From: Cyanidioschyzon merolae
Lineage: Eukaryota
Assembly: GCA_000091205.1 (NCBI GenBank)
Contig: AP006483.2
Reading direction: 5' to 3' (one strand)
Length of the DNA stretch: 64,000 bases
Part shown: piece by piece, positions 3,001 through 56,816 of the stretch
Layout of the letters: each line of letters begins with the position of its first letter
Numbering within the stretch: the first letter of the stretch is position 1
Notes under the pieces: generated by a model
Database searches by the model: none
Seen by the model: only the letters and a program-made list of their open reading frames with translations
What the model was told of the DNA's origin: nothing
Translations under genes and position numbers: made by a program

Positions 3001-3240
3001 GTCGCAGCAAAACTCACTAGTCGCTACCTGTGCACCGGGTTTCCAGGGCAACGAAGGCAAAGGTTTGCAACCCACCGACGTCGCCGTAAAAGCAATATTC
3101 ATAGGCACGCTCGTGCTCATAGGAAATCATTCCTCTACGTTCCGAGAGAGATTCCCAGTCCAGTCGTTCCATGTGTATCGCCTCTGAATCACGGCCCATG
3201 GGCAAGATTTCAGAGTGCTCTCCGCGCACATCTGTAGCCG

Positions 3241-8914: not shown

Positions 8915-9973
8915 TTAGACAGGGGCCAAGTAATTCGACTTGAGGCTTCGCCGCCGCAACGCCTGGTCGATCAGATCAAGACTCAGTTCGTAAAGCTGAT
9001 CTGCCTTGTCGATTTCGTATGTTGGTTCAATAACCTGCGGTTTCGTCTTCTCTCGACCTTCCGTATACTTGCCACGCCACTGATAATACGAGCCCGAGTC
9101 CGAGAACTGTCCCTGGGTCGCCACTTCGGCTACGCGGCGGCCGGCCTCATCATTCGGAACGTATTGCCGAGTGATGTACTTCTGAAGAATCGGGAAGAAT
9201 ACGTAGCGGAACCAGCCACGCTTTTCGCGGAAGAGGTTGCTGTCGGCGACACATCCCGGAAAAATCGCCACAGAGGTCACCCCGTCGCGGCCGTATCGAT
9301 CACTAAGCGCCTTCATTGTCAACACGTTCGCGGCTTTGGCGTCTTTGTAGGCTTTTGTGGGCTCAAACGGGCCACTGTCCACCATGCCCGTCGTCTGCGG
9401 ACCAAGCCCCGCGGCTAGACCAGACAAATCACCGAGACGAGCCTGCGGGGGGATCTTTCCCGGCAACGAATTCGGCGAATGGGTCTGAGTCGTCAGAAAC
9501 ACAATGCGCCCGCGCGATATTTTCAGCTTCGGCAACAGCTCCCGACATAGAAGCAAATGGCTCAGATGGCATACCTGCATGGTTTTCTCGATGCCGTCCA
9601 CCGTGAAACGCGGTTTCTTGTCCCGCGGATGCCATATTGCGGCATTGCAGATCAGGGCATCCAGGTGATCGACGCGCGCCACACTCGATAGCGCTCTCAC
9701 AAACTTCAACACAGAGGCGAAATCAGCCAGATCACAATGCAGCACTGTATAGGCGTCCTTTGGAAGGTTTACGCTGTTTGCTGCGCGCTCCGCCCGGTCG
9801 ACGTCACGACATGCCATGACGATGTGCCAGTTGCCCTTGTTGATCAGAGCGCGAGCTGCATACAGACCAACTCCAGAGCACGCGCCTGTGATCACGGCGA
9901 TCTGCGACTGTTTCGGGCCCATACGAAGATGCAGCATACGATGCCGGCGCGCTACAGGCGAACGCTGCACCAC
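8915..9973 (-). CDS. Light-dependent protochlorophyllide oxidoreductase-like short-chain dehydrogenase (POR family)
   Basis: 352 aa. VITGACSGVGLYAARAL (Rossmann TGxxxGxG). NKGNWHIVMACRDVDRAERAANSV...KDAYTVLHCDLADFASV closely parallels the POR consensus GKWHVIMACRD...KDSYTVMHLDLASLDSV. YKDAKAANVLTMKAL (catalytic YxxxK). The C-terminal FPGCVADSNLFREKRGWFRYVFFPILQKYITRQYVPNDEAGRRVAEV block also matches the POR consensus. Confidence 0.8.
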   Translation of the reverse strand: MVQRSPVARRHRMLHLRMGPKQSQIAVITGACSGVGLYAARALINKGNWHIVMACRDVDRAERAANSVNLPKDAYTVLHCDLADFASVLKFVRALSSVARVDHLDALICNAAIWHPRDKKPRFTVDGIEKTMQVCHLSHLLLCRELLPKLKISRGRIVFLTTQTHSPNSLPGKIPPQARLGDLSGLAAGLGPQTTGMVDSGPFEPTKAYKDAKAANVLTMKALSDRYGRDGVTSVAIFPGCVADSNLFREKRGWFRYVFFPILQKYITRQYVPNDEAGRRVAEVATQGQFSDSGSYYQWRGKYTEGREKTKPQVIEPTYEIDKADQLYELSLDLIDQALRRRSLKSNYLAPV

Positions 9974-11299
9974 CTAGGGCAGCGGATGCTGACAGTGGTG
10001 ACGGTATCGAGCTGCGAAGCACCCGTCACGTGCGGTACGCCGCGGGAACCGTGCACGAGTTGCAGCGCGCGCGCGCGAAAAATGTGTCTTTCCTAGTACA
10101 GCGGAACAGAAACGAAAAGAGCTTGCATTTTCTTGGGATAGATTCTCTCCGATGCGGAAGCTGTCGATCGTTTCAACAACAAGAAACGTTCGCTTAAGTA
10201 TGCGTATCCAGTCAAAAACCTCTTTTGCGTAGCGGCACGAGTGATCGCCCGTCAATTGCCCAGAGTCCGAGCTAAATCTCCCGTAGATTGTCTAGCGTTC
10301 AGCGCAACTAGCACAAGCGCTCAATGCCTTTTCAGAAACTAGGCAGAACTCCGACCATTTCGAACAACAACTTCACCAGTACGTAGTGCCAAGGGTTCCG
10401 CAGTGCGGCGCTCAGAGATCACAACGATCGTAAATGGACTTCACCACAGCTCTCCGACGAATACCGTAGAGGAGGCATAAGGAAATTTCCTACGGTGCTC
10501 TGTATTTTTTGCAAACGTCTGCACGTCAGTTGGAGACTTCATGTCTAGGGCAGGTCATTCGGCATTATTGTACACCGCGGGCGGCAGCGTTTTTTTCAAA
10601 GGCATTCGTTGTTCGCTTTGTCGCTTCCGGGCTCGATGTTCGGGTTAGGCTCTTGAAACTAATCTTATAGAGTAGATCAGAATACAGTATGTGCTTTTGG
10701 CGGATGCCTCGGTCAAACGGAATGCTAAGTATAGACACTCTATGTATGCGATGCCTCTACCAAGATCACCGGATCCGGGAGAGTAGCAAGCACCATAACT
10801 TGGACAATGACGATAGCATGCAAATGGCTTGAACTGCCATCAGTACCAGCCTATGACGCAGGATCGAAGCACAATTCAGGTCAGTTCCTCATTGCAGCGT
10901 CCGTGCGGCATGCATAACAAGCATCACGAACAAACGTATATACGAGTTCAGGAACACTAACGTACCTTGTGTGGTTACGATCAATAAAACGAACGAAATC
11001 CCTAACGAGAAGATTGATGCATACCTCATCCAGACAACCGTAAGCCGCAGAGAACGCTACGCTTTTGATAGAAGCGTCGAGGGGTTTCGTGCCAGGCCCA
11101 ACAGCTCCATGTATGTCAGGGCGGTGCTGCGATGGGCAGTTGCGTCGGCACCAGCGACATAACCTCTAGCAAGAGACTGCTCTACGTGAGTTTCCGATCT
11201 ACGACACTTGACTTCCGCTGCAGCGCGATGCGAACACGCATGTGCCAAGGCGGTGCGTGGGACACGTGTCTTTCATCAATCGGGGAGGCGTCTCGCGCG

Positions 11300-14000
11300 G
11301 TGCACGCATCGCGCCGGTGAGCGCACCTGGGAGATCGGGCAGGCATGAGACACGACGTGTATGTCGCCGTTGATGGGAAACGTGATCTCGTTCAGAAGCG
11401 TGTTGTTCAGCTGTAAAAAGCTTTATTTGCGTTGGGGTCATAGCCAAGTGTAGTTTTCAGTCCATTTGTGTTTCAAACTTCAAACAAGTCTAGTCAAGTG
11501 TTTTTTCCCAGCATATACCACAAGCGTCCAAAGAGCGTTCTTTTTCAAAAAAAATAGGAAAGCTATGAAAAAGCAAGTCCACGATCCTGGAGGTCCAGTG
11601 TCGCCGGCTGCCAGAAAAAACAAAAACAATACCGAGCCCAGAAGATAAAGTAGAGAAAAAGAAGCAAATGGGGGAGGCCCCACGTCGAAGGCGGCAAGAA
11701 AGACAACTGGACAACGAGATGGTGGTTAAAGGCTGTCTTCTTAAAAATATCAAAGATTCCTAGAGGGAAAAGTTGGTAGACGCTATCAAAACACGTGTCG
11801 ACTCGTACTCCAAGAGCATTTTCAAGGCGTCGTCAGGACCGATGCATTTGGCGGGGGAGATGTATCGCGACGTGACGCACATCGAAACGGTCGAGATTCC
11901 AGACGAGTTTTTCGACGTGACCTTTATTCGTCACCTGATGCTTGGTACAGAGGAAGCGCGGATGGAAAATGAGCGGGTGCACGCCCTCCACGAAAAATAT
12001 CCCTCTTACAGCTTCGCGGGTACTCGAAACAAGGGGGACTGGAGTATTTACGACTATGGGGCGATGAAGTACCTCACGAATCTGAAGCAACATTTGACAA
12101 CGAACCTCGAATGTTTCATGATACGCGCCGTGGTTGCACTCTACCCGGACATCTCTCGCAAAGGAAAATCGGCGATTATCAATGGCATCAAGAACGATCG
12201 CAAGCATGAAGATGAGATCGAATTCGTCGGAGAGAAGGCGACAAACGAGAGCACAAAAGAAGCTTCTGTGATCCGTAAGGCTAGAGAAGAGCACCGAGCA
12301 CTCTTGGGTTGGCGAATCCAACAGAAAAGATATCAGAGTTGAAAAAAGATAAGGAAAGATACTATCGCCTCGTCCTGCGCTATTTCGTGTTTTTGGATCG
12401 TGAACTCAAACGCAAGGCGGAGATGAAGCTGAGTGGGGAAAAAATGAAGAGTGCGAGAGACGGACGGCTCTCCTAATGGGGAAGCGCTTCAAACAGTGGT
12501 TCCGTTGTGGAACATCAAGTCACATTTTGTGACTATCGATTCCAGAATCCTTCACGGCATCATGAAGTAGAACCGTCCGGATTTCAGTGTCAGCAGAGAC
12601 GATTTCTCCGGTGAAAATCGGGAAACGTACTGGAAGAATATCTTCGTTTCCGAACGTCTCAAAGTGAGCAAACAAAAGGTATTTATTGGGATGATCGAAA
12701 CCTATGGAGTAGCCATGTGTGTACACGATCGGCGCTTGAAGACAGATCGGACAGTTTCGTCCTCGGCTTCGCCCGCGACGAAGGATGAAGATGAGAAGAA
12801 GGCGGATCTTGCGACGCAGAAAGTGCACGAGAACAACATTGTCGTTGGTGCGGACCCCGGAAACACAAATATCATAAATATCGCAGCACCCAAGGGTGCG
12901 GAAGATCGCAATGACGGCAACTTTCGTCGGAAACACATGCGCCTTTTGAGGTTCTCGAGAGCGAGACACTATCTAGAATCCGGTATAATGAAGGCAAGGA
13001 AGAGGATTGACACGTGGAATGCAGGAGTGAAGGATCAGTTGGAAGCTTTGAACAAGGTGACGAGCTGAGGAGCGGACTTTGAAGTTTTTTGAAATTCATG
13101 GAAGCTCACGTTGCTCATTGGGAGACACTGTGGAAAAAGTATACCAAGCCCCGATGGGCCCGTCTGCGCACGAGTCTATAATGCGTGAAGCAGCGTGCAT
13201 TTGACAACTTTTCCAATTATTTGAACGCCCTAAAAGAGGATGAGGGTCAGAAGCTCGTTGTAGCGTACGGAGCAGGGCGCTGGATGACCCAAAAAGCGAC
13301 TGCGCCAGCTCCGTCAGCATGAAAGAACAAGGTGTGCGCAAGGCGTTTTGTTCCGAAACCGATAGATGAGTTTCGAACACCGTATACACACCATGAACTA
13401 GGCTGTACACTTCAAAGGGTCGTGATGGAAAAGTGCCTGCGGAGCCCTGAGGGTACAAAAAGTACGGAGCGTTGACGGAACAGCAAATGGAAAGCGGGCG
13501 AAAGTTCGAGGAATGCTTGCACTAGTGAGTACCGTAAATAGCAAGGAACGTGTGGAGTTTGTGAACCGAGACTTTAACTCTGCCATCAATATCAGACGGT
13601 GTGCAGTGATGTGGAAGAAACTTCCAAAGTTGACAAGAGAGAATTTTGTTGGGCAAACTCTCAAACTCGGACTATATGAGAAAAGAATGGAACCAGTAGT
13701 AGGAGGCCGGCCGAGAGCCTGGGAGGCTTCTGCACGTCAGTTGGGAACGTCTTGTCCAGAACGGATTCCTCGCCACTACTGTACACCGCGGGCGTCGTTC
13801 GACTTTTGGAAAGTGTTCGGTGTCAGGGGTGCCCACTCTAGACAACAACGATCGCGTGAACAGTTCATGTCCGTTGTGCAAGCATGGAGTCGCTTCAAGA
13901 GCTGGGCGCTGGGCCCGACTGGCCTGAAAACAACGCACGCTTGGGGGCCTATCTCGAACGCTGGTTTACCTTTGGCAGGTTTCGCAGACATTACGAAACC
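11300..14000 (+). mobile_element. TnpB/Fanzor-like element, copy 1 (degenerate); boundaries approximate
   Basis: Nucleotide homology to the 51.8-54.4 kb copy begins upstream of the ORF (about 11.3-11.5 kb) and fades past the C-terminal coding region (about 13.8-14.0 kb). Flanks differ between copies. Confidence 0.6.
11773..13830 (+). pseudogene. TnpB/Fanzor-like RuvC nuclease, interrupted (ORF pieces 11773-12342, about 12350-12640 in another frame, 12664-13068, 13513-13830)
   Basis: RuvC-I-like [17 protein letters not shown] (about 12848-12895). RuvC-III-like [15 protein letters not shown] (about 13555-13600). 60-70% aa identity to copy 2 across the N-terminal (IPDEFFD.TFIRHL.LGT), middle and C-terminal segments. 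Frame breaks fall at different places than in copy 2. Confidence 0.65.
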
Positions 14001-14625
14001 CCCCGAGAGTATCAGCGAAAACATGACGGCCGCTATGTGCATCTATTCGCTTCTTTTCATGCGGTTCGCGTGGCGAGTACAGCCGCGGAACTATCTACTC
14101 TTCGCCGTTCACTTCAGCAACGAGCTGATTCAGGCTTACCACTTGCAACGTATTTTGGGAGGATACGACTTTTACGCCGGAAAGTACGCCACTGCAGAAC
14201 GGGCCAAGTCTGAGGCTGTTCCGTCACCGTCGTCGTAGAACTCCCTGCAGATCCCCCGGAAGCATTCCGTTGGTTACCGTCATAAGCGGACGTGTTGTTG
14301 CCATATGGGAGCGAGACGCGGTGTCGTAAGCCTTGACTTGAATCCGAAACTTCTTCGACTCTTGATAGCGCACGAAGGTATGGAGCACTGCTGAGTCGAG
14401 GCCGAGCACCGATGCGAAACCAGCTTTGCGTTCGATAACGCAGGGTCCGCGCATTGCGCTTCTATCCGAATAGGATCATTTCTTAAATTTTCCGGATACT
14501 TCTGCAGATGATGCAAAGCACCTGACAGGGACGCTCTCTTGCACGGCTAACGTACAATATCAGGATCGCAAAACGTTAGCAGCGTCATGCAGCATTCAGC
14601 CTTGCCCCGCGATCATTCAGCAGTC

Positions 14626-19849: not shown

Positions 19850-20870
19850 CGCTATCCAGGGACACGGCATCGATGCGTGCTGCGCATTGATGTCCAATAC
19901 ATACATGAATATACATATTCCTCCCATGTAGTTCGGAGGCTAGACGGCTGTCGCTATCCAGGGATACGGCATCGATGCGTGCTGCGCATTGATGTCCAAT
20001 ACATACATGAATATACATATTCCTCCCATGTATTTCGGAGGCTAGACGGCTGTCGCTATCCAGGGATACGGCATCGATGCGTGCTGCGCATTGATGTCCA
20101 ATACATACATGAATATACATATTCCTCCCATGTATTTCGGAGGCTAGACGGCTGTCGCTATCCAGGGATACGGCATCGATGGGTGCTGCGCATTGATGTC
20201 CAATACATACATGCATATACATATTCCTCCCATGTATTTCGGAGGCTAGACGGCTGTCGCTATCCAGGGACACGGCATCGATGCGTGCTGCGCATTGATG
20301 TCCAATACATACATGAATATACATATTCCTCCCATGTAGTTCGGAGGCTAGACGGCTGTCGCTATCCAGGGATACGGCATCGATGCGTGCTGCGCATTGA
20401 TGTCCAATACATACATGAATATACATATTCCTCCCATGTATTTCGGAGGCTAGACGGCTGTCGCAATCCAGGGATACGGCATCGATGCGTGCTGCGCATT
20501 GATGTCCAATACATACATGAATATACATATTCCTCCCATGTAGTTCGGAGGCTAGACGGCTGTCGCTATCCAGGGATACGGCATCGATGCGTGCTGCGCA
20601 TTGATGTCCAATACATACATGAATATACATATTCCTCCCATGTATTTCGGAGGCTAGACGGCTGTCGCTATCCAGGGATACGGCATCGATGGGTGCTGCG
20701 CATTGATGTCCAATACATACATGAATATACATATTCCTCCCATGTAGTTCGGAGGCTAGACGGCTGTCGCTATCCAGGGATACGGCATCGATGCGTGCTG
20801 CGCATTGATGTCCAATACATACATGAATATACATATTCCTCCCATGTATTTCGGAGGCTAAACGGCCTGT
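19850..20870. repeat. 102-bp minisatellite, about 10 tandem units with two alternating variants
   Basis: Unit cgctatccaggga[c/t]acggcatcgatg[c/g]gtgctgcgcattgatgtccaatacatacatgaatatacatattcctcccatgta[g/t]ttcggaggctagacggctgt. Period 102 counted from 19850, 19952, 20054 and onwards. It lies immediately 5' of the cysE-like start codon (19760). Confidence 0.9.
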
Positions 20871-29079: not shown

Positions 29080-31449
29080 AGTGCCTCGATGCACCAGCCA
29101 TTCTCGACGTGAACGTCGTGCTCATCATTGGGGTCTTCGGCGTCGTACACGCCACCGTTGCTGCAACAATGAATGGCAACTCTACAGCGATCTAACGTTG
29201 AGGTTGCGCGTTCAAGTCTCGGCCTGGTGCAGAGCCCTGCAGACTCCCCCTGGAGGACTCTGTTTTTGGAGGCGTACATACAGGCAGGTTCACGCTCGTC
29301 GAGCATCCGGCACATTGCGCTTGGCACCCAGAGGGTACTGTTCGGTGGGGATCGGAAGCCTCACGGGCTATGTGGTGATCAGTGCGACAACGACGCCCTC
29401 GATGATGCCTGTAGCCAATGTCGCAGTGGCAGCAACAACAGTGGTACGCGTGATCCAGGAACAACGACGCGTTGCGGTAATTTTTAGAGTTCCCTCGGTA
29501 ACGTTTGCGCGGTATTGTGTTGGGAACTTCGCCCCGTTATCTGTGTTGAATTAGGCAGGCAGATTCCATGAGGCGACTCAAAGACCAAATGAGATTCCTG
29601 TTACATATATGTAGACGTTCTATGCGACCGAGGACGTGTGATCGTCACGGGTAGCGGACTCGGGGTGCTCTCGACATCATGCAGTGCCTGCCGAGATACT
29701 GCACTTCAGATAGGAGTCGTGGAACGTCTACCACAACCTCAGTCATATTCGAACACCATTCGCTATGCTATATGCGCTGTCCATACCATAGCTACCGAGA
29801 AAGCTCCTTGGTATCTGCAGGAGCTAGAGCCTCAACCCTAACAAAAAGTCCTACTGGATCGCCCGAAGATGACTGCGTAGTGCAGGAACACGTTTTCTTG
29901 TGCCGCTGGAGTGCGATAGCCCTAGATAGGCGGAACGTCGCCGTTTTGCTAGCTGTAAGTTCTGGTTACGCCGCTGGACCTAAATTTTTCGGGGAAATCG
30001 ACTGCTTCAAACTTCGTAACGATACGTTCTCGAGGTCCATGTTTACCAATCTGATCCATGCGTCCTTAAATGGCGTCAAAACGTGCCGTCTCTCGCAACG
30101 CGTCACCTGGATCCGTTTCGGAGACTTTAAGTGAACGTTTGCCTTGTCATAAACGGCTCTCCCCCAGTGCTCCATTCACCACTTGTTTCCCTCTAGGCAC
30201 TTGACACTGTCCGGCTGGGCAGGTACGTCGCACAACACCGACATGCTTGCAGGCCACGTACAGCAATTCGAGATAATTTTTATTCACCCCTGCTCTCTGG
30301 AATAGAAAGCTATTTCGCAGTGTTCAGCAGGTGATCGAAATCACGATACGATGCACTGCACTGATCGAAGACGAATTGTCTGTAGAGTATTTTATTTACT
30401 AAACATTGCAATCAGGACAACATTCCTGCTTCAAATCACCCATATCACAGTATTCAGATGGTTGTGGAACATTGAAAGCAAGAAGTATATGCGCTCCGTA
30501 ACAAGAACCAATATTCTTGAGTACTCTTTGCGGTCAATGGTAGAGAACGACCCGTTGATCACCCTAGGGAAAGCACGAGCGACGATGGTAGCCGGCATGG
30601 GCGTCTCAGTTTTCCAGCAGCTTGTTTGCGTGGTCCTGAAAACGCTGGGGTATAGTCGCAAAAAATGAGTCCTAGTTCAATGACGGCCACTGTCTACCGA
30701 AATCACATCTACAGCAAAGTTCCTGGAATCTCACTATCGGTCTGATGTACAGGGATGTCATTGTTTTCTACAGTCGATGAGACTTGCTTCGAATGAAACG
30801 GTCAGAGCTTATGTGGATATTTGCGGAGCAGGGAGCCCGTTGTTTGTACGATCGATTTCGAAGAGAGCGATCATATCGTTATTTGGTCAAGCTGCAGTGG
30901 ATTCAAGTGACGGCCTCAGTTTGGCTCGCAGAGGAGGCTCATACAGGAACACCATCCACTTTGTCGAATGGTTGAAGACTATCGCTTGGTGTCTGGCGAC
31001 GTGTTTCTATTGATCAGAGTGAGATTTCAGCATCCCCGTCGCGTTCGAGCCTTTGCGGATTGTATCGGGGTAGAGCTGCTTTTCATTCTTCCGTACACTC
31101 TATGATTCAACCGCATTGAAAGAGTGATTTTAACCTTGAAACGCAAATGTTCCACCACTGGGCGGATCTCGCGAAGCGATCAGCACACGGTGACATACCA
31201 GGGACACATATCGCCTTTCTTCTGATAGTGCGTCTCCCCGCGGGAAGTCTCTTCCCGAAGGCCGTAAATGAGAGCGTCCATTTGAGGAAATAAAAAATCC
31301 GAGGCAAGGTATGGACATGGAAGTCGAGGATCCCCGAGGGCCGTCAACGCCGGCTGCCCGACAAGAACAAATGAAAAAAAACAACATCTTCTCGCTGACC
31401 GTCGAGCGAAGGAGAGCAAGTGACTGAGGCGAATAAGAAGTAGAGGGCA

Positions 31450-31760
31450 GATAGGCGAGAAAATGTATTTGCCCAGCGGGACGATGACGAGACGCTGGTG
31501 GCACAGAGGCCATGAGTTCGAAGAATCCTTGCTTGCACTGGTGCTTCATCCAGAGGCAATAAACCTATGGTTTTCGTGAATCGTGACTTCAGAGCTGCCC
31601 TCAAACTGAGACGGTGTGCGGTACAGAGTACGAGACCCGATGAGCTGACGCGATCCAACTTCCTGGGGCAGCCTCTCAGGCTCGGAGTCTACGTGGAAAA
31701 ACTCAAATCGATAGCAGGAGGCAGGTCAAACAAGGCTGGAAGGCGTCTGGACACAGACAC
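31450..31760 (+). pseudogene. Fragment of a third TnpB/Fanzor-like copy (C-terminal RuvC-III region only, degenerate)
   Basis: MVFVNRDFRAALKLRRCAV...SNFLGQPLRLGVYVEKLKSIAGGRS parallels copy1 [18 protein letters not shown]...[25 protein letters not shown]. The preceding frame gives ESLLALV, matching RGLLALVST in copy 2. The NAAxNI motif has decayed to RAALKL. Confidence 0.6.
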
Positions 31761-33372: not shown

Positions 33373-33446
33373 CAGTGGTGCGGCATCGACGTCGTCGGTC
33401 GCATTATGGTGCGGATGTCCCGAATATGATCTTGAGTACCGCATTC

Positions 33447-34497
33447 GCGGTAGTAGCGAATCGCGGAATATCAGTATCGTTCCTGCAACCATTGCCCAGC
33501 AAATCCTTCCCAGTGTACCAGTACGGCGCTGTCGCCTTGGTGCAATGCTGAACACCACCGTACCCGTGCCAGGCTCCAGGCGGGAATCCAATGCCGTCTA
33601 TCCCGGGGTACGGATTCATTGGCATCGAAAGCCTTGCACATCCCAGCACAATGCCAATAACGTGTACCAAACAATCACCTTAGACGCCCGCTCGAGACAC
33701 AGCCGCTGGACGCCCCGAATGCCCCAGACTCTTCTTCCGAATGGTGATCGAGGTGTCCAGGTCTCGGTTCAGAGCGAAAACACTGGCCGGCACGGCGGCT
33801 ACTGGCATCACACCCTAGCAAGCATCTCACCAGGTCGAGTCCGTCGGTACATGACACTCGATCAGCTTACCGTACACCACAGAGTGTACCGGGCTCCGTT
33901 CTATCCGCATCTTGTCAGCCTGATTCAACGAGAACTCATGCTCGTAATGCAGGTATGTCGCCCTGGAGGCATCCACGGGTGTCTAACAAGAATCAGTCGC
34001 TGCACTTATCGTCCGGTCTCGTCCACGAGACGCGAATGGAGGCCACGCGCACTGCAACCCGTGCACCGTCACAGGCTACGACTCACAGAGGCGTCTTGCT
34101 AGTCACTTGGCTTCGTGCCGCTCACGGAATAAGTTCGTGAATGCACGCTCCTCGCTGCCGTACACGAGACGCAGTCTAGGACTCCAGCACTCTATCATGT
34201 ACGCCTGTCCAGGGATCGTCCGCAGGAGCCTGCGGGACGCTGAGGCACGCGCTGAAGCGCGGAATCCCTCGCATCAGTCTTCGTGTTTTTCGGTGGCATT
34301 CCGGTGAGCGGACAGCGCCTACATCAGGCGCGCTCCACACGGACTCGGTTACTCTTCTGGGTTTCGACTCTCGTTAGAAACGCTTTGGAGCTTGCCTCGA
34401 GTGTGCTGCAATCATTAGCATCGCTACTCGACGCGCCACTGTATTCGGGATCAGCTGGGCAACGTCGTTCGACGTGTTGCCAGCGTACTGCATCTCC
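33447..34497. repeat. Direct repeat copy 1 (about 1.05 kb, about 99% identical to 39274-40327)
   Basis: Starts right after the aminoacylase stop codon. Identity begins at ...cgcgg[t/g]a[g/a]tagcgaatcgcggaatatcag and ends at ...gttgccagcgtactgcatc. Embedded ORF translations differ at about 7 of 210 codons. Confidence 0.85.
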
Positions 34498-36499
34498 TGT
34501 CGTGAACGTTGGCTGCAGGGTCGCAACAGATCTCGATCAAAGTATTCCAGATACATGTGAGCAGCTGGTAGCTCTGGTCCTTCAATTCCGAAAAGCAATT
34601 GCGTGATAGAGGGCGGCATGCCAAGAGAAGCTGGGCAAGCCATCCTCGAATGACAATTTCCACGATTCCCAATGACGTGCGGAATCTCACGTTTTGGAGT
34701 ATCATCCCGGTTCATGTATCGAAGCATGGAGTTCTTGACAACGATTTGAGACTGGTGCTTGCGCACCCGCATGTCGCCGTTAGCGTCATTCCCCGTTGTT
34801 TTTTCGAGATCAGCCTTGTCTCCGTTGTGCGATGGTTTTCTGCTCTTTTCTCGTCTCCGCCTGCTCCTCACTTACTTGGCCAGGCAGCGTGGATGTGGTC
34901 GCTGGACTCTACACCCGACCTGGTTCCTCGCGATTCAGGTAGGCTCGATGGACAGCTGGGCTGATGCGTGCCCTCTGTATATACGTATGAATCTACTATT
35001 CATCAAATACCTTTTTGTCACCGTCTCCGTCGCGAGCAAGCCCAAAGACAGATGCGCATCATGCCGCTTCCCCGCAAGCCCGAGCAGCGGAGCGAGCAAG
35101 CGAGCGAGCGGTCCAAGACTGATCAAGGCAGAGGTCGGCTTGTCGGAGAACGGCTTCCCCATGGGTTTCGTTCCCACGAATGCGAACGACTGGTCCATTG
35201 ATCAGTGAACGTCAAAATGGCGTCACATAACAGCGGAGATGCTATCGACTTGATTGAAACAGGGATAACACGCTGGCTCGAAAAGCAGCTCATCACGAAT
35301 CTCAGCGATGTACTCCACGAGCGCGTTTGTGTGATGAACAGCGACACTGTCTTACAGCGGGACTCAGACGTATAGCGAGCAGCCGCCCCAGAATGTGCAT
35401 CGATGAGCGATGTGGTGTTGAGCGACTCTATCTGTCCAGGGATGTATAGACGAAGACGCGATTGACTCGCTGCTCGGGGATGCTGATGTCGATGCGCTCA
35501 CCTGCCCCTTCTCCACGAACCGTTGTGTGCTCAGTTTTGAGTACACGGATACAGGTCTCATCTCTCTCTGAAATGGACGTCCATCGAGTGAGACGAACAC
35601 CGGCCGTCGACTGGAAAACGCATGCGCGTTTCACTACGAACTCACTCACGTGATGCTCAACAAACGACAGTCTCTCAGGGAAGCACGTCCTTCTCTTTCC
35701 GCAAACGTGTCCCTCTATCACACGTTTGAACGAACGATACGGAAACGTTCATACGCTGGCTCCTTTGGAATTATTTCATGGATAACGGATGGAGTGAAAT
35801 TGATTTACGACAGGACAGTCACGCGTATACAGTTTGGTGCGTTCTGTTTGCGATGCCCGACATTCAACCCAGGGAGTTCGAGACGGGCGCTTCATCCACC
35901 ACCTGCTGACCGTAGAATGACTAACTTGCATCCGCAAGACAATTTTTAGCATCAGCAGCAGTGACAGCATAGAGTTTTTTCTGGCCTTTCCCCAATTCAC
36001 AGGATCCATTAGTTGCGTAGCATACCGTCGAGGAAAAAACAATAACGTCATATAGGGTGTACCGGTATCCACGGACCAGCATTCACTGCTCTGAACATAA
36101 CGCTTTGGACGGGCAGCATTCGTCATGCTAGCGTCCGTCTCACCTTAGATTCCAGCGATAAGCTTTGGCGTTCGTTCCGCGGACTGGAGCCGCTTTCTTC
36201 ACCATGACACCTTTCGGTAAACGCGAACTATTCGACGGGGCCAGTTACTCCGTTCCGCTGCGATATCAGAAAAAAGCAACACGCTCTACAGCGCGCAGGA
36301 TAGTACCTGGCGTCGACAAATCAAGACCTCGAAGCACGCGCACTCGCCACGAAGAGCCAGCAACCTTGATTTATATGGACTGAACAGTACAACGGCACAG
36401 CAAAGCGTGAACGTACCTCGAGCTGTACCCGATGAAGACTACTGCCTAACCGTACGAACCTCTGTAGTTTTTCCGTCGCCGCGCTGCGCTCTAACGAAA

Positions 36500-37060
36500 G
36501 CACCTGTGGACGCGTTTACACTCATTCAGCGTATGAGGTTCCAGAAGCACCGAACACAAACCCCAAATAAGCACCCCTGGCTAGCTCCGCATACTTCTGC
36601 GCTATTCCCGTGCGTACACTGCGCTTTGGGAAGCACCGGTGGACGCGTTTACACTCATCCAGCGTATGGGGTTCCAGAAGCACCGCACTCAAAACCAAAA
36701 ATAAGCACCCCTGGCTAGCTCCGCATCCTTCTGCGCTATTCCCGTGCGTACACTGCGTTTAGAGAAGCACCGGTGGACGCGTTTACACTCATCCAGCGTA
36801 TGGGGTTCCAGAAGCACCGAACACAAAACCAAAAATAAGCACCCCTGCCTAGCTCCGCATACTTCTGCGCTATTCTCGTATGTATACTGCGCTTTGGGAA
36901 GCACCGGTGGACGCGTTTACACTCATCCAGCGTATGGGGTTCCAGAAGCACCGAACACAAAACCAAAAATAAGCAACCCTGGCTAGCTCCGCATCCTTCT
37001 GCGCTATTCCCGTGCGTACACTGCGTTTAGAGAAGCACCGGTGGACGCGTTTACACTCAT
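36500..37060. repeat. 134-bp tandem repeat, about 4.2 units
   Basis: The core gcaccggtggacgcgtttacactcatccagcgtatggggttccagaagcaccgaacacaaaaccaaaaataagcacccctggctagctccgcat[a/c]cttctgcgctattcccgtgcgtacactgcg recurs at about 36508, 36641, 36775, 36909, 37043. It gives repeat-derived shadow ORFs on both strands. Confidence 0.9.
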
Positions 37061-38230: not shown

Positions 38231-39273
38231 ACGACTGCGGTTTTTGTCGGGCGTGGGTGCATACTGAGCTAGTGCGCAGGACAGCGTGCCGGCATGACGC
38301 TGCTTCCAAACTCGACGCTTGTCTCGTATAGTCGAAGATGCTGATCCGAACACTGGGCGTCCTATGGCTCCAATACGGGAACCAGATCGATTCGAATGCA
38401 CACGAAGGTGCTGCTGTGTGCACCAGAAGTTTCCCTCCTGCCAGCATGGGAAACGAGGATATGCTATTTAGCCTGATCATCGCGCAGAAGACATGCAGGG
38501 AGCATCACGCTCGACCGCAGATACCCAACTCCTACAGACAGACCGAACCAGGAAACAGTATGTGATTGCTGCTTCTTGGCACATGCAAGCGACGATGAGC
38601 ACGATAGCGCGACACGGGTCTTGGATTCTTTGGCACAGTGTGTGTCTCGCCAAGCTGTGTATCAGGCATTGGCAAAGCAGCAGTCACGCCAAAACCTGTG
38701 TCCCGAGTCACACTCTTGCGGCAGGTCGTGCTCGCGTAAACGGTTTCAGCTCTAACACGTTTCCGAAGTTGGAATCGTGGCAGATACGCATACTTGCAAA
38801 AACTTTCATCCATTGCGTCGCGCCTTGGTAAAGTAACGTAGCGTTGCTTTCGGTCCGAAAAAGCGCCGAGACGATGCCGTCGTCAAGACTCATACATCAT
38901 TCCAGAATATGATGCAGCGAGCGTGACTTGCCTCATTGCGCTGTGGATGGGTCATCAGTTAGCGCTGATCCACGTTCGGATGGAACCTAGAGAGGGCGCG
39001 TCGCGAGCGCAGCGCAGCCTGGGCGCCAGAGCCGCTGTCCAACACAAGGAGCGTGCAGCCTCGCTTGTATTGTCTCCTGAGAGATCTGCGATATGCGCAG
39101 CTCGCACGGCTCAACGATACAAGGCGCAAATATTAAGAGGAAAGAGCGAGCAGGTACAAAGCCCGTATCCGACAGCTACGGATTGTAGAGCGAAAAGATG
39201 GGATTCAAAAGGAAATTAAAAAAGAGAGATGTGTCGTTATAGAAAATATTCCGCAACCACGCCTCCATGCCTA

Positions 39274-40327
39274 TACGCGGGAATAGCGAATCGCGGAATA
39301 TCAGTATCGTTCCTGCAACCATTGCCCAGCAAATCCTTCCCAGTGTACCAGTACGGCGCTGTCGCCTTGGTGCAATGCTGAACACCACCGTACCCGTGCC
39401 AGGCTCCAGGCGGAAATCCAATGCCGTCTATCCCGGGGTACGGATTCATTGGCATCGAAAGCCTTGCGCATCCCAGCACAATGCCAATAACGTGTACCAA
39501 ACAATCACTTTAGACGCCCGCTCGAGACACAGCCGCTGGACGCCCCGAATGCCCCAGACTCTTCTTCCGAATGGTGATCGAGGTGTCCAGGTCTCGGTTC
39601 AGAGCGAAAACACTGGCCGGCACGGCGGCTACTGGCATCACACCCTAGCAAGCATCTCACCAGGTCGAGTCCGTCGGTACATGACACTCGATCAGCTTAC
39701 CGTACACCACAGAGTGTACCGGGCTCCGTTCTATCCGCATCTTGTCAGCCTGATTCAACGAGCACTCATGCTCGTAATGCAGGTATGTCGCCCTGGAGGC
39801 ATCCACGGGGGTCTAACAAGAATCAGTCGCTGCACTTATCGTCCGTTCTCGTCCACGGGACGCGAATGGAGGCCACGCGCACTGCAACCCGTGCACCGTC
39901 ACAGGCTACCACTCACAGAGGCGTCTTGCTAGTCATTTGGCTTCGTGCCGCTCACGGAATAAGTTCGTGAATGCACGCTCCTCGCTGCCGTACACGAGAC
40001 GCAGTCTAGGACTCCAGCACTCTATCATGTACGCCTGTCCAGGGATCGTCCGCAGGAGCCTGCGGGACGCTGACGCACGCGCTGAAGCGCGGAATCCCTC
40101 GCATCAGTCTTCGTGTTTTTCGGTGGCATTCCGGTGAGCGGACAGCGCCTACATCAGGCGCGCTCCACACGGACTCGGTTACTCTTCTGGGTTTCGACTC
40201 TCGTTAGAAACGCTTTGGAGCTTGCCTCGAGTGTGCTGCAATCATTAGCATCGCAACTCGACGCGCCACTGTATTCGGGATCAGCTGGGCAACGTCGTTC
40301 GACGTGTTGCCAGCGTACTGCATCGCT
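39274..40327. repeat. Direct repeat copy 2 (about 1.05 kb)
   Basis: See copy 1. There is a purine-rich stretch (aaaaggaaattaaaaaagagagatg) about 50 bp upstream. Confidence 0.85.
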
Positions 40328-51759: not shown

Positions 51760-54420
51760 TATCGTGACGTTGTCGAGCAGGCGTGCGCTGCGCCTCAGGG
51801 CGTGTGCTCCAGAGGCAACGCCAGTGCCGATTGGTGCCGGCGCACCGTATACCGCACTCAACTGAAGCGTGTTCCACACAAAGGTGTGTGGAAGTCGATG
51901 CTTTTTTCGTTGTATGTAGCAGACGCTATCGCAGGTCGTTCATTAGACGTGATAAAAAAATCTAAGGGAATGGTATGGGGGTGCTATGCGGAAATCCCGG
52001 AAGGCTTTCATTGCCGGGTTGAACAAAACTGGAAAGCCGTGCCGAGCATAGAGGAACGGGAAAGGACGATGCAGCAGAAGCAATCGCGCGAGGCCGGACG
52101 TTGAAAAGGATCTCGAAAGACGACAGTACGACGGGATGGTGGTGAAAGCCTCTTTTCTTGGCCATAGCTAGTATCCCTACAAAAAAAAGTTACGAGAAAC
52201 GATCAGAAACCTTGTCGAGTCGTATTCAATGAGTATTATTGAGGCTTCTTCGGGACTGGTGCATATGGCGAAGGAGATGTACGACAATGTGACGGACATT
52301 CGAAGAGTCAAGATTCCGGACGAGTTTTTCGACAAGACCTTTATTCGTCACCTTGTGCTTGGTACAGGGGATGCGCGGGGTGAAAATGAGCGGGTGCACG
52401 TCCTCCACGAAAACTTTGCAGAATTCCGCTTCGAGGGTAATCGATACAGGGGTGACGCGGATGCTTACATATACGGGGCGATGAAGTATCTCACGAATCT
52501 GAAGAACCATTTGACAATGAACGTCGAACGTTTCATGATACGCCCCGTGTTTGCACTTTACGCGGGCATCTCTCGCAAAGGAATATGGGCAATTATCAAT
52601 GGCTTTACAAACAATCCCCAGCATGAAGATGAGGTTGAATTCGTCGACAAGAAGGCGTCACACAGGAGAAGGAATGAAGCTTCTGTAATCCGTGCGCCTA
52701 CTAAAGAGCACCGCGCAGAATTGGGACTGGCGAATCCAGCAGAAAAGATATCAGAGTTGAAAACAGATACGGAAAGATACTAATATCTCATCCTGCGGTA
52801 TTTCGTGTTTTTGGACCGCGAGCTCGAACGCAAGGCGGAGATGATGCTAAGTGAGGAAAAAATGAAGTGCGGGAGAGACGGAAGGCTTTCCGAATGGGGG
52901 AGCGCTCCAACATCGTTCCGTTGTGCAACATCAAGTCACATTTTGTGCGTATTGATTCCGGCGTCCTTTACGGCATCATGAAGGGGATCTGTCCGGGGTT
53001 CGATGTAAGGAAGACAGAGTTCTCCGGTGAAACCCAGGAGACGTACTGGAAGAATATCTTCGATATCAAACGTCTCAAAGTGAGCAAGAAAAAGAAATTC
53101 ACTGGGATGATAGAAACTGATGGACTAGCCATATGTGTACACTATCGGCGGTTCAAGACAGATCGGCATGTTCCGTCTTCGGCTTTGCCCGAGACGAAGC
53201 ATGAAGATGAGAAGGAGGAGGATCCTGCGATGCAGAACGTGCAGAAGAACGACTTTTTCGTTGGCGCGGACCCCGGGAACACGAACATCGTAACCATCGC
53301 AGTACGCAGGCGTGCGGAAGATGGTACTGATGGTACCTTGCGTCGGAAAGAAATGCGTCTATTGAGATTCTCTAGAGCGAGATACGATCGAGAATGGGGA
53401 ATCATGAATGCGAGGAGGAAAATCGAGACTTGGAATGCAGGAGTGAAAGAGCACCTGGAAGCTATGAGCGAAGTGACGAGCCGCGAAGCAGACTTGAAAG
53501 CTTTTCGGGAGTCCATGGAAGTTCGCGTTGCGCATTGGGAGGCGCTGTGGGCGGCGGAGTATACAAAGCCCCGGTGGGCTCGTTTGCGAATGAATTTGTA
53601 TTTTGGGAAACAGCGTGCATTCGCGAATTTTTTTTCAATGAGTTGAGCGCCTTGAAGGAGGATGAAAGTCAGAGGCTCCTAGTAGCATACGGAGCAGGGC
53701 GATGGAAGATCCAAAAAGAAACTATGCCAGCTCCAACGACGAGAACATTCAAAGAGTGCGCAAGGCGCTTCGTTACGATACCTGTAGATGAGTTCCGAAT
53801 GTCCTACACACACCATGAACTGGGATGTACACTTCAGAACGTCGAGATGGAAAAGTGCCAGCGGAGCCCTGAGGAGGATATAGCAAAATATGGACCGCTG
53901 GCGGAAGAGCAAATGGAAAGGAGAGCGAAAGCTCGAGGACTACTTGCATTAGTAAGTACAACCAACGATGGCAAGAAACGGATGGAGTTTGTGAATCGAG
54001 ACTTGAACGCCGCGATCAATATACGGGGATGGGCGGTGATGGAGCATAAACCTCCAGACAGGACAAGAGTGAACTTTATCGGACAATCACTTCAAGTCGA
54101 ACTATATGAGAAAAAGTTGAAACCAGTAGTCGTTGGCCGGTCCAAAAAACTGGGAGGCGTCTGCACGTCACTTGGAGACTTCTTGTCTAGGGCAGGCTTC
54201 TCGCCACTATTGTACCACTGGCAGCAGCGTTTGTCTTTTGAAAGGCGTTTGTTGTTGGAGGTGGGCGTGAACGAAGGCCACTGTGAAAAGTCTGCGTCAA
54301 GTCGCTTTTTCTTTCGTACTCCCAGGCCTTCTGCAGCTGAGCAAACTACTGAACCGAGCGCTTAGGGCGACTCGGGTTTCTGTGAGAGGCAGCCCGCGGT
54401 TGGTATCATGGTGCGGCACA
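51760..54420 (+). mobile_element. TnpB/Fanzor-like element, copy 2 (more intact); boundaries approximate
   Basis: Homology with copy 1 starts in the GPAT9 5' flank (about 51.78-51.9 kb: ctgaagcgtgttccacac vs cagaagcgtgttgttcag). It runs past the end of the coding frame to about 54.3-54.4 kb (e.g. ctgggaggc[g/t]tctgcacgtca[c/g]ttgg...ctcgccacta[t/c]tgtac). Confidence 0.6.
52229..54365 (+). pseudogene. TnpB/Fanzor-like RuvC-family nuclease (IS605 OrfB/TnpB superfamily), about 700 codons across three frames; either disabled or intron-containing
   Basis: ORF pieces are 52229-52783, 52867-53646 and 53394-54365. RuvC-I-like [17 protein letters not shown] (about 53255-53305). A helical Arg-rich segment [16 protein letters not shown] Zn-finger-like PVDEFRMSYTHHELGCTLQNVEMEKCQRS. 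RuvC-III MEFVNRDLNAAINIRGWAV (about 53982-54038), i.e. the D-x-N-A-A-x-N-I hallmark. A TAA stop follows ...KTDTERY at 52781 (copy 1 reads ERYYRLVLRY through). Frame switches occur near 52905 and 53640. Confidence 0.65.
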
Positions 54421-56816
54421 CGCCTCGGCGAGGTTCGGGTGTGGGCACTGCAGCCCCAGCGGTTGCGTCCACATCCAGAGCAAAGCACGGACCTGTTGCT
54501 GCAACAGCGGTGCCACAGCAGGCATCCACACCCCCGTGCGATGTCTCTGGAGAGGACCATGCGTCCCAGCCAGGCGCCTCAGCGGAGACGCTTGAGGTGC
54601 CCAGCGACTTTGGGTGCGACGACTTGCGCCCTGCAGCAAGCGCAACCCGGGATTCGGGCAAGCACCTGGAGCCGGACGCCGAACGGTTTGGCTCTTTGGA
54701 ACAGGTGCGTCAGGAAGCCGAAGCAGGAACGGAACTGACGCGCTCTGCACTGGGTCCTCGCCAAGTGCGGAAGCGAGTGGTGCAGCGTCGGTCCGCGACA
54801 GGCGCTGCAGAGCGAGCCCCAGTGAGTACGCACCCGCCGTCTGATGCGGCTCCAAGGAGCGGCACCTCTGTCGGAGGAACCAACACAGGACAGAGCGGGC
54901 AGGATGCTTGGCACCCAGCGGGTGCTTCTGGACCGGATGCCCCGGAAACCCCAGCTGCGTTCATCACCAGTGCTGCTGTTCCCGAAAGCACCGGTGCTGA
55001 TCTTCGTTGGACGCCTGCTCCCTCATCGGAGCATCTCACCAGAGGCGCTGTCGTCATGCGTTCGCCACAGGTCGACGGACCGGCCACAGCCGTCATCAAG
55101 CGCTGTCCGAACTGCGGGGGTGATGATCTCGAGTTTGGTAGCAGTTCGGGCCAAACAGCGTGCATGCTCTGCGGACATGTCGTTGAGGAGAACACCGTAG
55201 TCAATGAGCTCCAGTTCGTAGAGGGTGCTGGCGGTCACAGTGCCGTCGTAGGTCAGTTCGTACGCACCGGCAGCAGCGGAGCAGCGTCGCTGGGCGCAGC
55301 CGCTGCAGCCACCGCAGCCGGTGCGTCGCTGCTCTATAACGCATCCACGGCCGGTGTGACGCGTCTCACCATAGGGCATCGGGAGTCGCGGGAACTCACG
55401 TACGCAGCCGGACGCCGGAGAATCGCCACCATCGCTTCGCAGTTACACCTGCCGCCGCGGTTTGTGGATGCAGCGCATCGTTTGTTCACGCTGGCTGTCC
55501 AGCACAATTTCGTGCAGGGCAGGCGTACCCAGACGGTGGCGGCTGCAGCGCTCTACATTGTCTGTCGACGGGAGAAGACGCCGCATCTGCTCATTGACTT
55601 TAGCGATACGCTGCGTATCAATGTGTACGTCCTGGGTCATACTTATCTGAAATTGTGCCGCGTTCTGCATTTGGCATTGCCGATCATTGATCCTTCGTTT
55701 TACATTCACCGGTTTGCAAGTCGGTTAGATCTGGGCGAGAAGCAGAATGCAGTAGCGCAAACCGCACTGCGTCTGATCAGTCGAATGAAGAGGGACTGGA
55801 TCCATACTGGGCGGCGTCCGGCTGGTCTCTGTGGGGCAGCACTGCTCATTGCAGCTCGTATGCACGGCTTCCGTCGCTCGCAGCGTGAAATAGGTGCCGT
55901 CGTTCGTGTCGGTGATATGACCATTCGCCAGCGACTCTGTGAGATCGAAGAGACGCCCACTGGAACGCTCACTGGTCGAGAGCTTGCCGCCGAGTCGGGC
56001 TTGATCGAATCCGTTGCCGAGGAAGACACCACCGAGGCGCCTCTGGCGGCAACCGCGGATACCTCCGCAAACGCAGTGTCACCTGAGGCAGTTGACACAC
56101 TCGACGGCTGCGACCCGCCAGCGTTCCGGCGCCGGCACGCGTTGTCGTCGTCGTCGTCATTGGAGTGGCTCGAGCAGCAACACCACGTCCTGGAACAGAG
56201 CAAGGCAGCTGAACAGGACATTGTCGCGGATACCTCGCTTACCGAGCAGGAGCGAGCTTTTCTGGAAGCCTCCGCCACTGCCGAGGGCGAGCGCGTACCC
56301 GTAACGGTACTGGTGGCACCGGCAACGTCCCACGGTGCAGTCTCGAACTACGTCGGCTCGGTGAGGCGCGAGGCCTCGGGACCCCTGGCCCCGCTTGGCG
56401 CTGCAGCGGATGAGCGTGCCGCAAACCCGGTGACAACGGGCGTTATCGCTGGTACATCTGGTCTGTCGACGCGATCCGGCCCCGAGGGCGGAGCGAATTA
56501 TCGCTGGCTAAGCGACCGAGTCGAAGAGCTCAGCGACCTCGACTCCGAGGAGGAGGCTATGTTCGTGTGCACGCCCGAGGAAACTGCCTTTCGGGAGAAA
56601 ATATGGACGGCGATGAACCAGGAATGGATCGAGCGTGAGGCTGAAATCGCTCGTTGGGAACGCGACGATCCCGAGCGGTACCAGCGTCTCATGCGCAAAC
56701 GAGAGTACATGCGTGGTTTCTACAAATCCAACGCCAGCAACAGCGCCGCTGCTGAAGCGCCCTGGAGTCACAGCGCCACAGCAACAGCAGCAGCAGCAGC
56801 AGTTGCAACAACAACG

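Follow-up and report, generated by a model that had tools for sequence, protein, structure and literature searches.

The tail of CMe-1A, a Fanzor1 element of Cyanidioschyzon merolae, as a candidate ωRNA scaffold at the element's right end

Two decayed copies of one Fanzor-type element lie in a 64,000-nucleotide (nt) stretch of contig AP006483.2 of Cyanidioschyzon merolae (assembly GCA_000091205.1; the whole stretch is hereafter called the window), and both carry a conserved tail downstream of the RuvC-III motif of their open reading frame (ORF). The locus raises the questions of what this tail encodes, where it stops, and whether, beside copy 2, it reaches into the neighboring Brf1 gene, as a first-pass annotation had proposed. 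The element is identified here as CMe-1A, a Fanzor1 family of C. merolae (Bao and Jurka, 2013, Mob DNA 4:12; PMC3627910), and its last ~75 nt, from the TAG stop codon to the right end (54188–54263 in copy 2), are read as the probable template of the omega RNA (ωRNA, or fRNA) scaffold of CMe-1A, a reading to which a probability of roughly 0.6 is given. The element itself was described in 2013, and where Fanzor systems encode their guide RNA has been known since 2023.

The element and its right end

CMe-1A was described as an unclassified family of ~150 copies, ~3 kb in length and ~80% identical to their consensus, which lacks terminal inverted repeats (TIRs) and for which target-site duplications (TSDs) could not be determined (PMC3627910). 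In a blastn comparison of the published 3169-bp consensus (Additional file 2 of PMC3627910) with the window, both copies matched it at 83.6–85.4% identity (Table 1), and the tail of the window copies corresponded to the last 95 nt of the consensus; judged by their sequence, both are decayed members of CMe-1A. The present family agrees with the published description in its protein end (...HVSWRRFV*), its lack of TIRs and its modular 5′ parts; the 5′ module of copy 1 is other than the TE-N2-like module of the consensus. The 3′ end is given no role in the 2013 paper, which precedes the discovery of ωRNAs.

The relationship to Fanzor1 is also visible in the predicted protein fold. An AlphaFold model of an intact relative, P0046 (39% identical to the stitched ORF of copy 2), was obtained from a 49-member alignment that included CMe-1-like copies (pLDDT 62.8), and in a Foldseek search of the PDB its top seven matches were all Fanzor1 structures, aligned over roughly the full length (E = 2.5e-12 to 3e-9; TM ~0.5–0.6): SpuFz (9cez, E = 2.5e-12, ~14% identity; also 8gkh), GtFz and PpFz were among them, and the next matches were weak ones to Cas12 proteins (Cas12i and Cas12f, E = 0.012 and above). 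This fold was demonstrated on the relative P0046 rather than on the broken window ORF, and the confidence of the model is moderate. The Fanzor/TnpB motif D-X(125,275)-[TS][TS]-X-X-[zinc finger]-X(5,50)-RD (PMC3627910) is represented, in the consensus as in both copies, by GADPGNTN for the D motif, VDEFR(T/M)SYTHHELGC...C for the E/TS motif and NRD(F/L)NAAINI for the RD motif, with H-H-C-C instead of four cysteines at the metal-binding positions. Pfam searches with the ORF fragments, the relatives and the consensus protein returned nothing or only a faint match to PF07282 (E = 0.51, at the place of RuvC-III), and a sequence profile of the family matched no PDB chain at E ≤ 1. Because sequence-based hidden Markov models are nearly blind to this family, membership was established from the fold and from identity to the published consensus, and on these grounds the first-pass assignment to a Fanzor/TnpB-type element is borne out.

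For comparison within the family, the stitched ORF of copy 2 was searched against metagenome protein sets, yielding 54 relatives, and the metagenome contigs were scanned with the C-terminal 168 residues, yielding 80 loci of at least 367 confirmed matches. From these 80 loci 93 tails were extracted; when those with a shared downstream flank had been collapsed, 60 independent sites remained, 56 of which were long enough to be used. Since one of the source metagenomes holds a contig (L091) with 99.2% identity to 17 kb of the window, at least some of the 80 loci probably come from the species of the window itself or from a very close strain; the collection also takes in more diverged relatives (L049 and L070).

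The similarity between the two window copies was found to stop sharply. Alignment by blastn joined 11660–13831 of copy 1 with 52076–54263 of copy 2 at 77.5% identity over 2191 nt, unbroken through the RuvC-III motif, and the tail alone (13720–13831 vs. 54150–54263) was 74% identical, with a local score of 53 against 9.3 ± 1.6 for shuffled sequences; similarity past RuvC-III is thus real and breaks off at 13831/54263. The weaker blocks that had been followed to about 13.97 and 54.38 kb are a matter of chance: 13832–13990 and 54264–54420 gave a local score of 10, which 52% of the shuffles equaled or exceeded (shuffle mean, 9.9), and a tail profile found no match in 54264–54700. One of the cited blocks, acgcacgcttggggg at ~13.94 kb, falls within the coding sequence of a mitochondrial pyruvate carrier (MPC) gene (ATG at 13867). 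The same boundary is seen throughout the family. At the 56 independent sites, column conservation is 80–99% up to ...GGCGTTxG and then falls to background, and the flanks past this point differ at every site, which upholds the view of the tail as the right end of the element, located at 54263 in copy 2 and at 13832 in copy 1. With its last letters, ...GAAAGGCG, the published consensus breaks off within the terminal hairpin described below, and the copies share 10–17 nt more.

The description of the tail as non-coding holds only in part. Both in the 56-copy consensus and in the published 734-amino-acid (aa) CMe-1 protein the end of the ORF reads ...VELYEKKLEAVVGGRSKKTGRRLHVSWRRFV, ...GRSKKTGRRLHVSWRRFV*, followed by the TAG that corresponds to 54188–54190; copy 2 itself is out of frame there through a 1-nt deletion in an A-run at ~54144–54149. 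Because the consensus ORF runs to this TAG, the first ~40 nt of the tail (~54150–54190) are, by the family consensus, ancestral coding sequence, and ~54191–54263 (~73 nt) remain as the non-coding portion.

Two stem-loops in the last 75 nt

In copy 2 the segment from the TAG to the element end folds into two stem-loops and a short linker (−25.7 kcal/mol; Table 1). Stem-loop 1 forms in most copies, with a conserved base (GGCG/CGCC) and a variable apex. The linker, CUAUUGUA in copy 2 and CUACUGUA in the family consensus, overlaps the 3′ base of stem-loop 1 (54207–54209) and the first two nucleotides of the predicted terminal hairpin. A terminal hairpin that can be closed is present in 45 of the 56 copies; 32 of these fold into two hairpins and no more, and the median length is 77 nt. 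Its inner stem occurs as variant A (CGTCGTTCGA/TCGAACGGCG) or variant B (AACGTTTTTC/GAAAGGCGTT) and its outer stem as CACCG/TGGTG, CACGCC/GGTGTG, CACCGC/GCGGTG or CGCCGC/GTGGCG, and every combination of inner and outer stems pairs over 15–19 bp. The hairpin was also considered as a pre-existing genomic repeat that served as an insertion target; this was rejected, as no free-standing copies occur in 635 kb and all strong matches abut a tail.

The fold is biased toward the sense strand. Over the last 55 nt the + strand is the more stable one in 51 of the 56 copies (mean −19.6 vs. −13.7 kcal/mol; Wilcoxon p = 5e-9), and the mean z relative to dinucleotide shuffles is −1.8 for the tail, −0.05 for the flank and +0.8 for the ORF. 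For copy 2, the 55 nt after CUAUUGUA reach −22.0 kcal/mol as RNA of the + strand (z = −3.4) and −4.8 kcal/mol as RNA of the − strand. Among the cells of the stems, 186 are G·U and 41 are A·C. In an alignment of 56 distinct rows fitted to the hairpin model, both partners had changed in 11 pairs, where 7.1 were expected (3/500 shuffles), and in 37 cells, where 26.5 were expected (1/500), and 73% of the cells were paired, compared with 32–47% in slid controls; in an unfitted MAFFT alignment of the 24 A-type copies, 77% of the cells pair, compared with 36–48% in slid controls.

The position, the size and the two-stem layout of this segment are those expected of a Fanzor1 ωRNA scaffold. The scaffold would comprise stem-loop 1 over the stop codon, the linker and the long, G·U-rich hairpin that closes at the element end. 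It would be transcribed from the sense strand, with read-through into ~15–20 nt of flanking DNA. Bound by the Fanzor1 protein, the resulting RNA would direct the RuvC nuclease of that protein to sites that match the flank; transcription, processing, protein binding and guiding are steps that we infer by analogy with characterized Fanzor systems. The first-pass proposal of a candidate scaffold is strengthened by the position, the two-stem layout, the strand asymmetry, the excess of G·U pairs and the pairing retained by differing sequence variants, and the contribution of the fitted covariation is modest. Since the ORFs of both window copies are broken, their tails are relics, which could at best serve in trans a protein made from intact copies elsewhere in the genome.

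The ωRNA of SpuFz1 consists of a 75-nt scaffold and a 14–15-nt variable extension (Saito et al., 2023, Nature 620:660; PMC10432273; structures 8GKH and 9CEZ); the sequence that encodes it lies at the 3′ end of the ORF and extends to the end of the transposon, and there are also “ghost” copies that lack a Fanzor gene (PMC10432273). CMe-1A shares with it the location from the ORF 3′ end to the end of the transposon, the two-stem layout, the variable sequence outside and the occurrence of an ORF-less copy. SpuFz1 differs in belonging to a Tc1/mariner-type element with 33-bp TIRs and TA duplications, the inverted repeat being spanned by the ωRNA, whereas CMe-1A has neither; no similarity is detectable between the two RNA sequences, and the proteins have only the fold in common. 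Expression, binding and cleavage were shown for SpuFz1; the scaffold of CMe-1 is a predicted one. The fRNAs of ApmFNuc, CrFNuc and other Fanzor proteins derive from the 3′ non-coding region that abuts the right end (Jiang et al., 2023, Sci Adv 9:eadk0171; PMC10530073). The tail of CMe-1A resembles those of ApmFNuc and CrFNuc in that conservation continues beyond the ORF to the right end and that a stable predicted fold includes the ORF 3′ end, and additional ORF-less copies are common to CMe-1A and these Fanzor systems, in which they occur in Chlamydomonas. The fRNAs of ApmFNuc and CrFNuc differ from the CMe-1A tail in having been detected by small-RNA sequencing or co-purification, in being hosted by IS607 and Helitron2 elements, and in the greater length of the conserved 3′ regions (~200 nt).

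Within the wider clade, the P0046 family (39% protein identity) has a comparable stem followed by UUACUGUA and then by ~125 nt of unrelated sequence up to its own end, and ACTGTA also follows stem 1 at loci L002–L005. A shared stem and UUACUGUA with an unrelated remainder would fit the Fanzor1 structures, in which the region between the first stem-loop and the guide varies between species (PMC11423790). The P0046 and P0051 copies (L002–L005 and L089) lie downstream of a gene for a DDE_3 (Tc1/mariner-type) transposase, on the same strand, and their elements end ...GGTGTTCCACAAT...GAGTATA; classical TIR elements and the TIR-less CMe-1A therefore carry members of one Fanzor1 clade. An inverted-repeat search of the P0046-family loci found no TIR pair, probably because these contigs end inside the elements.

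Scaffold, DNA signal or by-product

Several observations weigh against a scaffold. The 56 tails are related repeats and not independent lineages, and the significant covariation counts come from the alignment that was fitted to the hairpin model: in the unfitted MAFFT alignment covariation was not significant (23/500 and 44/500), and RNAalifold found no structure in the untrimmed 328-column alignment, the fold being recovered only from trimmed alignments. A candidate long-range helix (CAGUAGU..GGUGG/CCACUACUG) and helices P2 and P3 in the ORF end were rejected, as their variation is one-sided or pair-breaking; in the aligned copies it looks neutral. Comparison of the tails by structure has accordingly given a divided answer, with pairing kept across the variants and an excess in the fitted counts on one side, and the unfitted counts and the upstream helices without covariation on the other. 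A terminal hairpin is lacking in 8 of the 56 copies, the ORFs of both window copies are broken, and well-preserved hairpins are stable as + strand single-stranded DNA (ssDNA) too (z = −4.5 and −3.5), which makes a role at the DNA level possible. A search of the window against Rfam 15 gave 0 matches at the gathering score, and within 53900–54500 there were 0 even at E ≤ 1; among the papers searched, none described a Cyanidioschyzon ωRNA. Finally, inserted tails are without constraint in situ, because copies at the same site in different samples differ by 2.08% in the tail, more than in the ORF 3′ end (1.27%) and the flanks (0.38%); the structural signal therefore reflects the history of active source elements, not selection on each insertion.

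As regards single insertions, the tail of copy 2 shows 0 differences from L091, where only ~1 would be expected, and it still folds well, the copy 1 tail and the ORF-less copy being degraded. In some same-site pairs (L013/L014 vs. L015/L017; L062 vs. L072) the tail carries clustered changes, e.g., 11 within ~30 nt, between nearly identical flanks, a pattern that points to gene conversion among the copies or to repeats that were assembled as chimeras.

The terminal hairpin might act in DNA rather than in RNA, as a cis signal for transposition: a hairpin on the single-stranded top strand would be recognized by an enzyme supplied in trans, as in IS200/IS605 or at the 3′ end of Helitrons. Such a signal would suit an element that has no TIRs, TSDs or transposase (PMC3627910) and bears a hairpin at its very end, the more so as the well-preserved copies fold as + strand ssDNA and a T-rich motif adjoins ~20 independent left ends, as expected of IS605-style insertion 3′ of a short motif. 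The resemblance to the TnpB elements of the IS200/IS605 group covers an RNA from the right end, a right-end hairpin, the lack of TIRs and TSDs and possibly the T-rich left motif; CMe-1A differs from them in its eukaryotic host and its Fanzor1 protein, no TnpA was seen, and the T-rich tract may belong to the element itself. In bacterial IS200/IS605 elements the right-end hairpin and the ωRNA overlap, so that DNA and RNA roles are compatible. The stems of CMe-1A, however, lean on G·U pairs, and the hairpin of copy 2 (54213–54263), stable as RNA, is weak as ssDNA (−3.9 kcal/mol, z = +0.25). No HUH/RepHel gene was noticed beside the copies, though no systematic search for helicases was made, and neighbors with a transposase domain (DDE_3) were called only at the distant P0046 and P0051 families. 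Nor are Helitron termini (5′-TC and CTRR-3′) present: the consensus starts CGATGAC, the last letters of the copies are ...GGTG(YG) or ...GTTGTY, and the hairpin closes there and not 10–12 nt before the end, as in Helitrons. On balance, we regard a DNA signal as an unlikely explanation of the hairpin.

A role confined to the Fanzor mRNA is quite improbable. The tail would then be a 3′ untranslated region (UTR), its hairpin serving 3′-end formation or transcript stability and guiding nothing, and its place directly after the stop codon and its structure on the sense strand only would be accounted for. Against this stand the exact coincidence of the end of the structure with the element boundary, where a position upstream of a processing site would be expected, and the match of the two stems and linker to a Fanzor1 scaffold; moreover, stem-loop 1 and ACUGUA recur in the 39%-identical family, the 3′ region of which is otherwise unalignable, and this fits co-evolution with the protein better. 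It is also conceivable that the tail has no function, its conservation being shared descent among decayed repeats and its fold a by-product of the consensus sequence. The pseudogene state of both window copies, the tails without in-situ constraint, the upstream helices without covariation and the non-significant unfitted counts all agree with that account; we nevertheless consider it very unlikely, as distinct variants retain long hairpins, the strand asymmetry is pronounced, the negative z values are absent from the flank and ORF controls, and the changes on both sides of pairs exceed those in shuffles. The scaffold reading is thus retained as the probable one.

The Brf1 start, other copies and the spread of CMe-1A

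The first-pass annotation had carried the tail into the first codons of the Brf1 ORF, placed the true start of translation at ~55056 and allowed the element to supply a promoter or 5′ UTR. The end of the element at 54263 lies 145 nt before the Brf1 ATG at 54408, so the two do not overlap, and because the tail stops short of the Brf1 ORF there is no basis for moving the start. The last ORF piece of the Fanzor pseudogene (53394–54365) and the Brf1 ORF are in the same frame with a single TAG (54363–54365) between them, which may be the reason why the tail seemed to enter Brf1. Pfam places Zn_Ribbon_TF (E = 3.8e-08, aa 232–271), TFIIB (1.2e-47) and BRF1 (8.1e-09) in the product, and homologues from other organisms align only from ~aa 225. 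The preceding 216 codons nonetheless look coding by several measures: they are open in only 0.3% of shuffles, frame 0 gives the highest codon log-odds, both for the extension as a whole and in the majority of sliding windows, and they show just 2 differences from L091, both at synonymous third positions. The resulting density of 3.1 per kb is like that of coding sequence, the same comparison giving 3.0 per kb in the neighboring acyltransferase coding sequence, 15.3 in intergenic sequence and 9.4 in the pseudogene body. The Brf1 of Cyanidium caldarium is annotated with a 135-aa N-terminal extension that holds GPRATRRRVVRRS, close to GPRQVRKRVVQRRS here; in BLASTP the two extensions do not match significantly (E = 16), and the shared basic motif is suggestive only. 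No exact 953-aa product is on record, and L091 carries a 950-aa call. The same orientation of element and gene over this short distance, the similar placement of copy 1, 34 nt upstream of the MPC ATG, and the alignment of most other homologues only from the zinc ribbon onward would favor the combined proposal of an overlap, a start at ~55056 and a promoter or 5′ UTR from the element; with the similarity ending at 54263 and an extension that has the marks of coding sequence, this proposal is highly improbable.

Table 1. Coordinates of the CMe-1A copies, their parts and the adjoining genes in the window
Feature	Position	Strand	Basis or remark	Match to CMe-1A consensus (blastn)
CMe-1A copy 2	52021–54263	+	blastn, three-frame translation, family-wide right boundary	52021–54247 to consensus 955–3169, 85.4% over 2233 nt
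RuvC-III motif NRDLNAAINI of the decayed ORF	53994–54023	+	Direct reading; “RD” of the Bao and Jurka motif	
First part of the tail (…TGRRLHVSWRRFV, then TAG at 54188–54190), coding in the family consensus	54150–54190	+		
Stem-loop 1, UAGGGCAGG CUUC UCGCC A CUA, holding the stop codon	54188–54209	+	Minimum-free-energy fold of 54188–54263	
Linker motif CUAUUGUA (family consensus CUACUGUA)	54207–54214	+	Columns at least 90% conserved	
Predicted terminal hairpin, B variant, closing at the exact right end	54213–54263	+	Folding, family variants, covariation counts	
3′ flank, guide segment if the tail is an ωRNA	54264–54283	+	Position only, analogy with SpuFz1	
Spacer between element and Brf1, 144 nt, unrelated to the element	54264–54407	+		
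Brf1 ORF, 953 aa	54408–57269	+	216-aa N-terminal extension, zinc ribbon, TFIIB repeats, BRF1 domain	
ORF-less tail, decayed, like a “ghost” ωRNA locus	10509–10620	+	nhmmer, E = 9e-19	10516–10603 to consensus 3078–3168, 81%
CMe-1A copy 1, pseudogene with several stops and frame changes	11321–13832	+	blastn	11321–13794 to consensus 660–3145, 83.6% over 2491 nt
Copy 1 tail	13719–13832	+	TAG to CAG (13757–13759), stem-loop 1 lost, terminal hairpin weakened	
MPC coding sequence	13867–14238	+	Pfam MPC, E = 4.6e-28; ATG 34 nt past the right end of copy 1	
Third CMe-1A remnant, internally deleted, stopping where the tail would begin	31288–31752	+	blastn	31288–31371 and 31555–31752 to consensus 888–966 (75%) and 2889–3086 (68%)

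Neither window copy has an intact Fanzor ORF, frameshifts and stops being present in both. Copy 2 is truncated at its 5′ end: it starts at consensus position 955, inside the ORF, of which the initial ~50 nt are missing together with all upstream sequence, and its reading runs through three different frames with at least one in-frame stop. In copy 1 the RNA model places the terminal hairpin at 13779–13832 (E = 4.5e-07), and the tail folds as a single hairpin (−20.4 kcal/mol); in the comparison of strands its z is −0.17. A third copy of the tail lies without an ORF at ~10509–10620 on the + strand; the sequence upstream of it is unrelated to the Fanzor ORF, and it was found at the homologous place in L049 and L070. 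The window is eukaryotic in its gene content, with Brf1 (a TFIIIB subunit), MPC, mitochondrial carrier and protochlorophyllide-reductase-like genes, each as one long ORF, and no tRNAs were found in it. Three repeats in the window are unrelated to the element: a 102-bp tandem array of ~10 units, 97–99% identical (19850–20866), a second tandem array with a period of ~133 bp (36498–37060), and a 1052-bp direct duplication of 98.7% identity (33443–34494 vs. 39273–40324).

As to its ends, CMe-1A lacks the TIRs, the TA duplication and the DDE transposase within the element that mark Tc1/mariner transposons, and a search with the tail profile over the window and 635 kb of loci turned up no inverted copy. 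At ~20 independent sites (loci L008, L010, L011, L026, L031, L034–L038, L044, L049, L052, L057, L061, L062, L074 and others) the published 5′ start of CMe-1A and TE-N2 (CGATGACAAAACGTTTAC) is directly preceded by a T-rich tract, typically [G/C]AT-T(4-8)-YTC; the sequence upstream of the tract is unrelated between sites, and no such tract follows the right end. The tract is either the true left end, ~10 nt beyond the published consensus, or a motif of the target, like a target-adjacent motif (TAM). When the extended B-type right end, ...GGCGTTTGTTGTC, is reverse-complemented, the resulting GACAACAAACG resembles the left end GACAAAACG; this likeness could represent a short imperfect TIR that was missed because the published consensus is 3′-truncated.

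The copies also show signs of rearrangement. At least four different 5′ modules are joined to one Fanzor body at about consensus 640–660 (11306–11335 in the window), and the module of copy 1 reaches upstream to ~10713 (10713–11320). Same-strand tandem pairs of Fanzor copies, 3.1–4.9 kb apart, occur at 7 of the 60 independent sites (loci L025, L033, L034–L037, L046, L056, L057 and L076), more than would be expected from random insertion in a compact genome. L049 and L070 share with the window the region 9277–13830, comprising the reductase gene (97% and 90% aa identity), the ORF-less tail and copy 1, at ~83% nucleotide identity; the sequence after the right end differs in the window, L049 and L070, and within the element identity drops to 77% over the 3′ kilobase. 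That the two loci are simple orthologues of the copy 1 locus was rejected, since their downstream flanks differ from that of the window and from each other, and the simple explanation is that copies have undergone ectopic recombination or gene conversion with one another.

It has been considered whether CMe-1A is organized like the TnpB-only elements of the IS200/IS605 group, with the T-rich motif beside the left end as target and TAM and an ωRNA hairpin as the right end, so that cutting by Fanzor and ωRNA and homology-directed copying, with an enzyme encoded elsewhere or even none, drove its spread to ~150 copies. The varied 5′ modules, the tandem pairs and the three loci in which shared sequence ends at the right end would fit such a course, and ordinary ectopic recombination among repeats explains the modules, the tandems and the breaks at the right end too; spread in the IS605 manner is, in our judgment, a rather improbable account.

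For the annotation of C. merolae, 52021–54263 is to be masked as a CMe-1A pseudogene, and the Brf1 and MPC gene models remain unchanged on its account; the exact right end of the family is now set beyond that of the published consensus. If the scaffold reading is true, it provides a ~75-nt testable scaffold for the Fanzor1 protein of a thermoacidophilic red alga, one of possible interest for compact or heat-tolerant RNA-guided nucleases. CMe-1A is also a useful case in which to study the multiplication of a Fanzor element that has no TIRs, TSDs or transposase.

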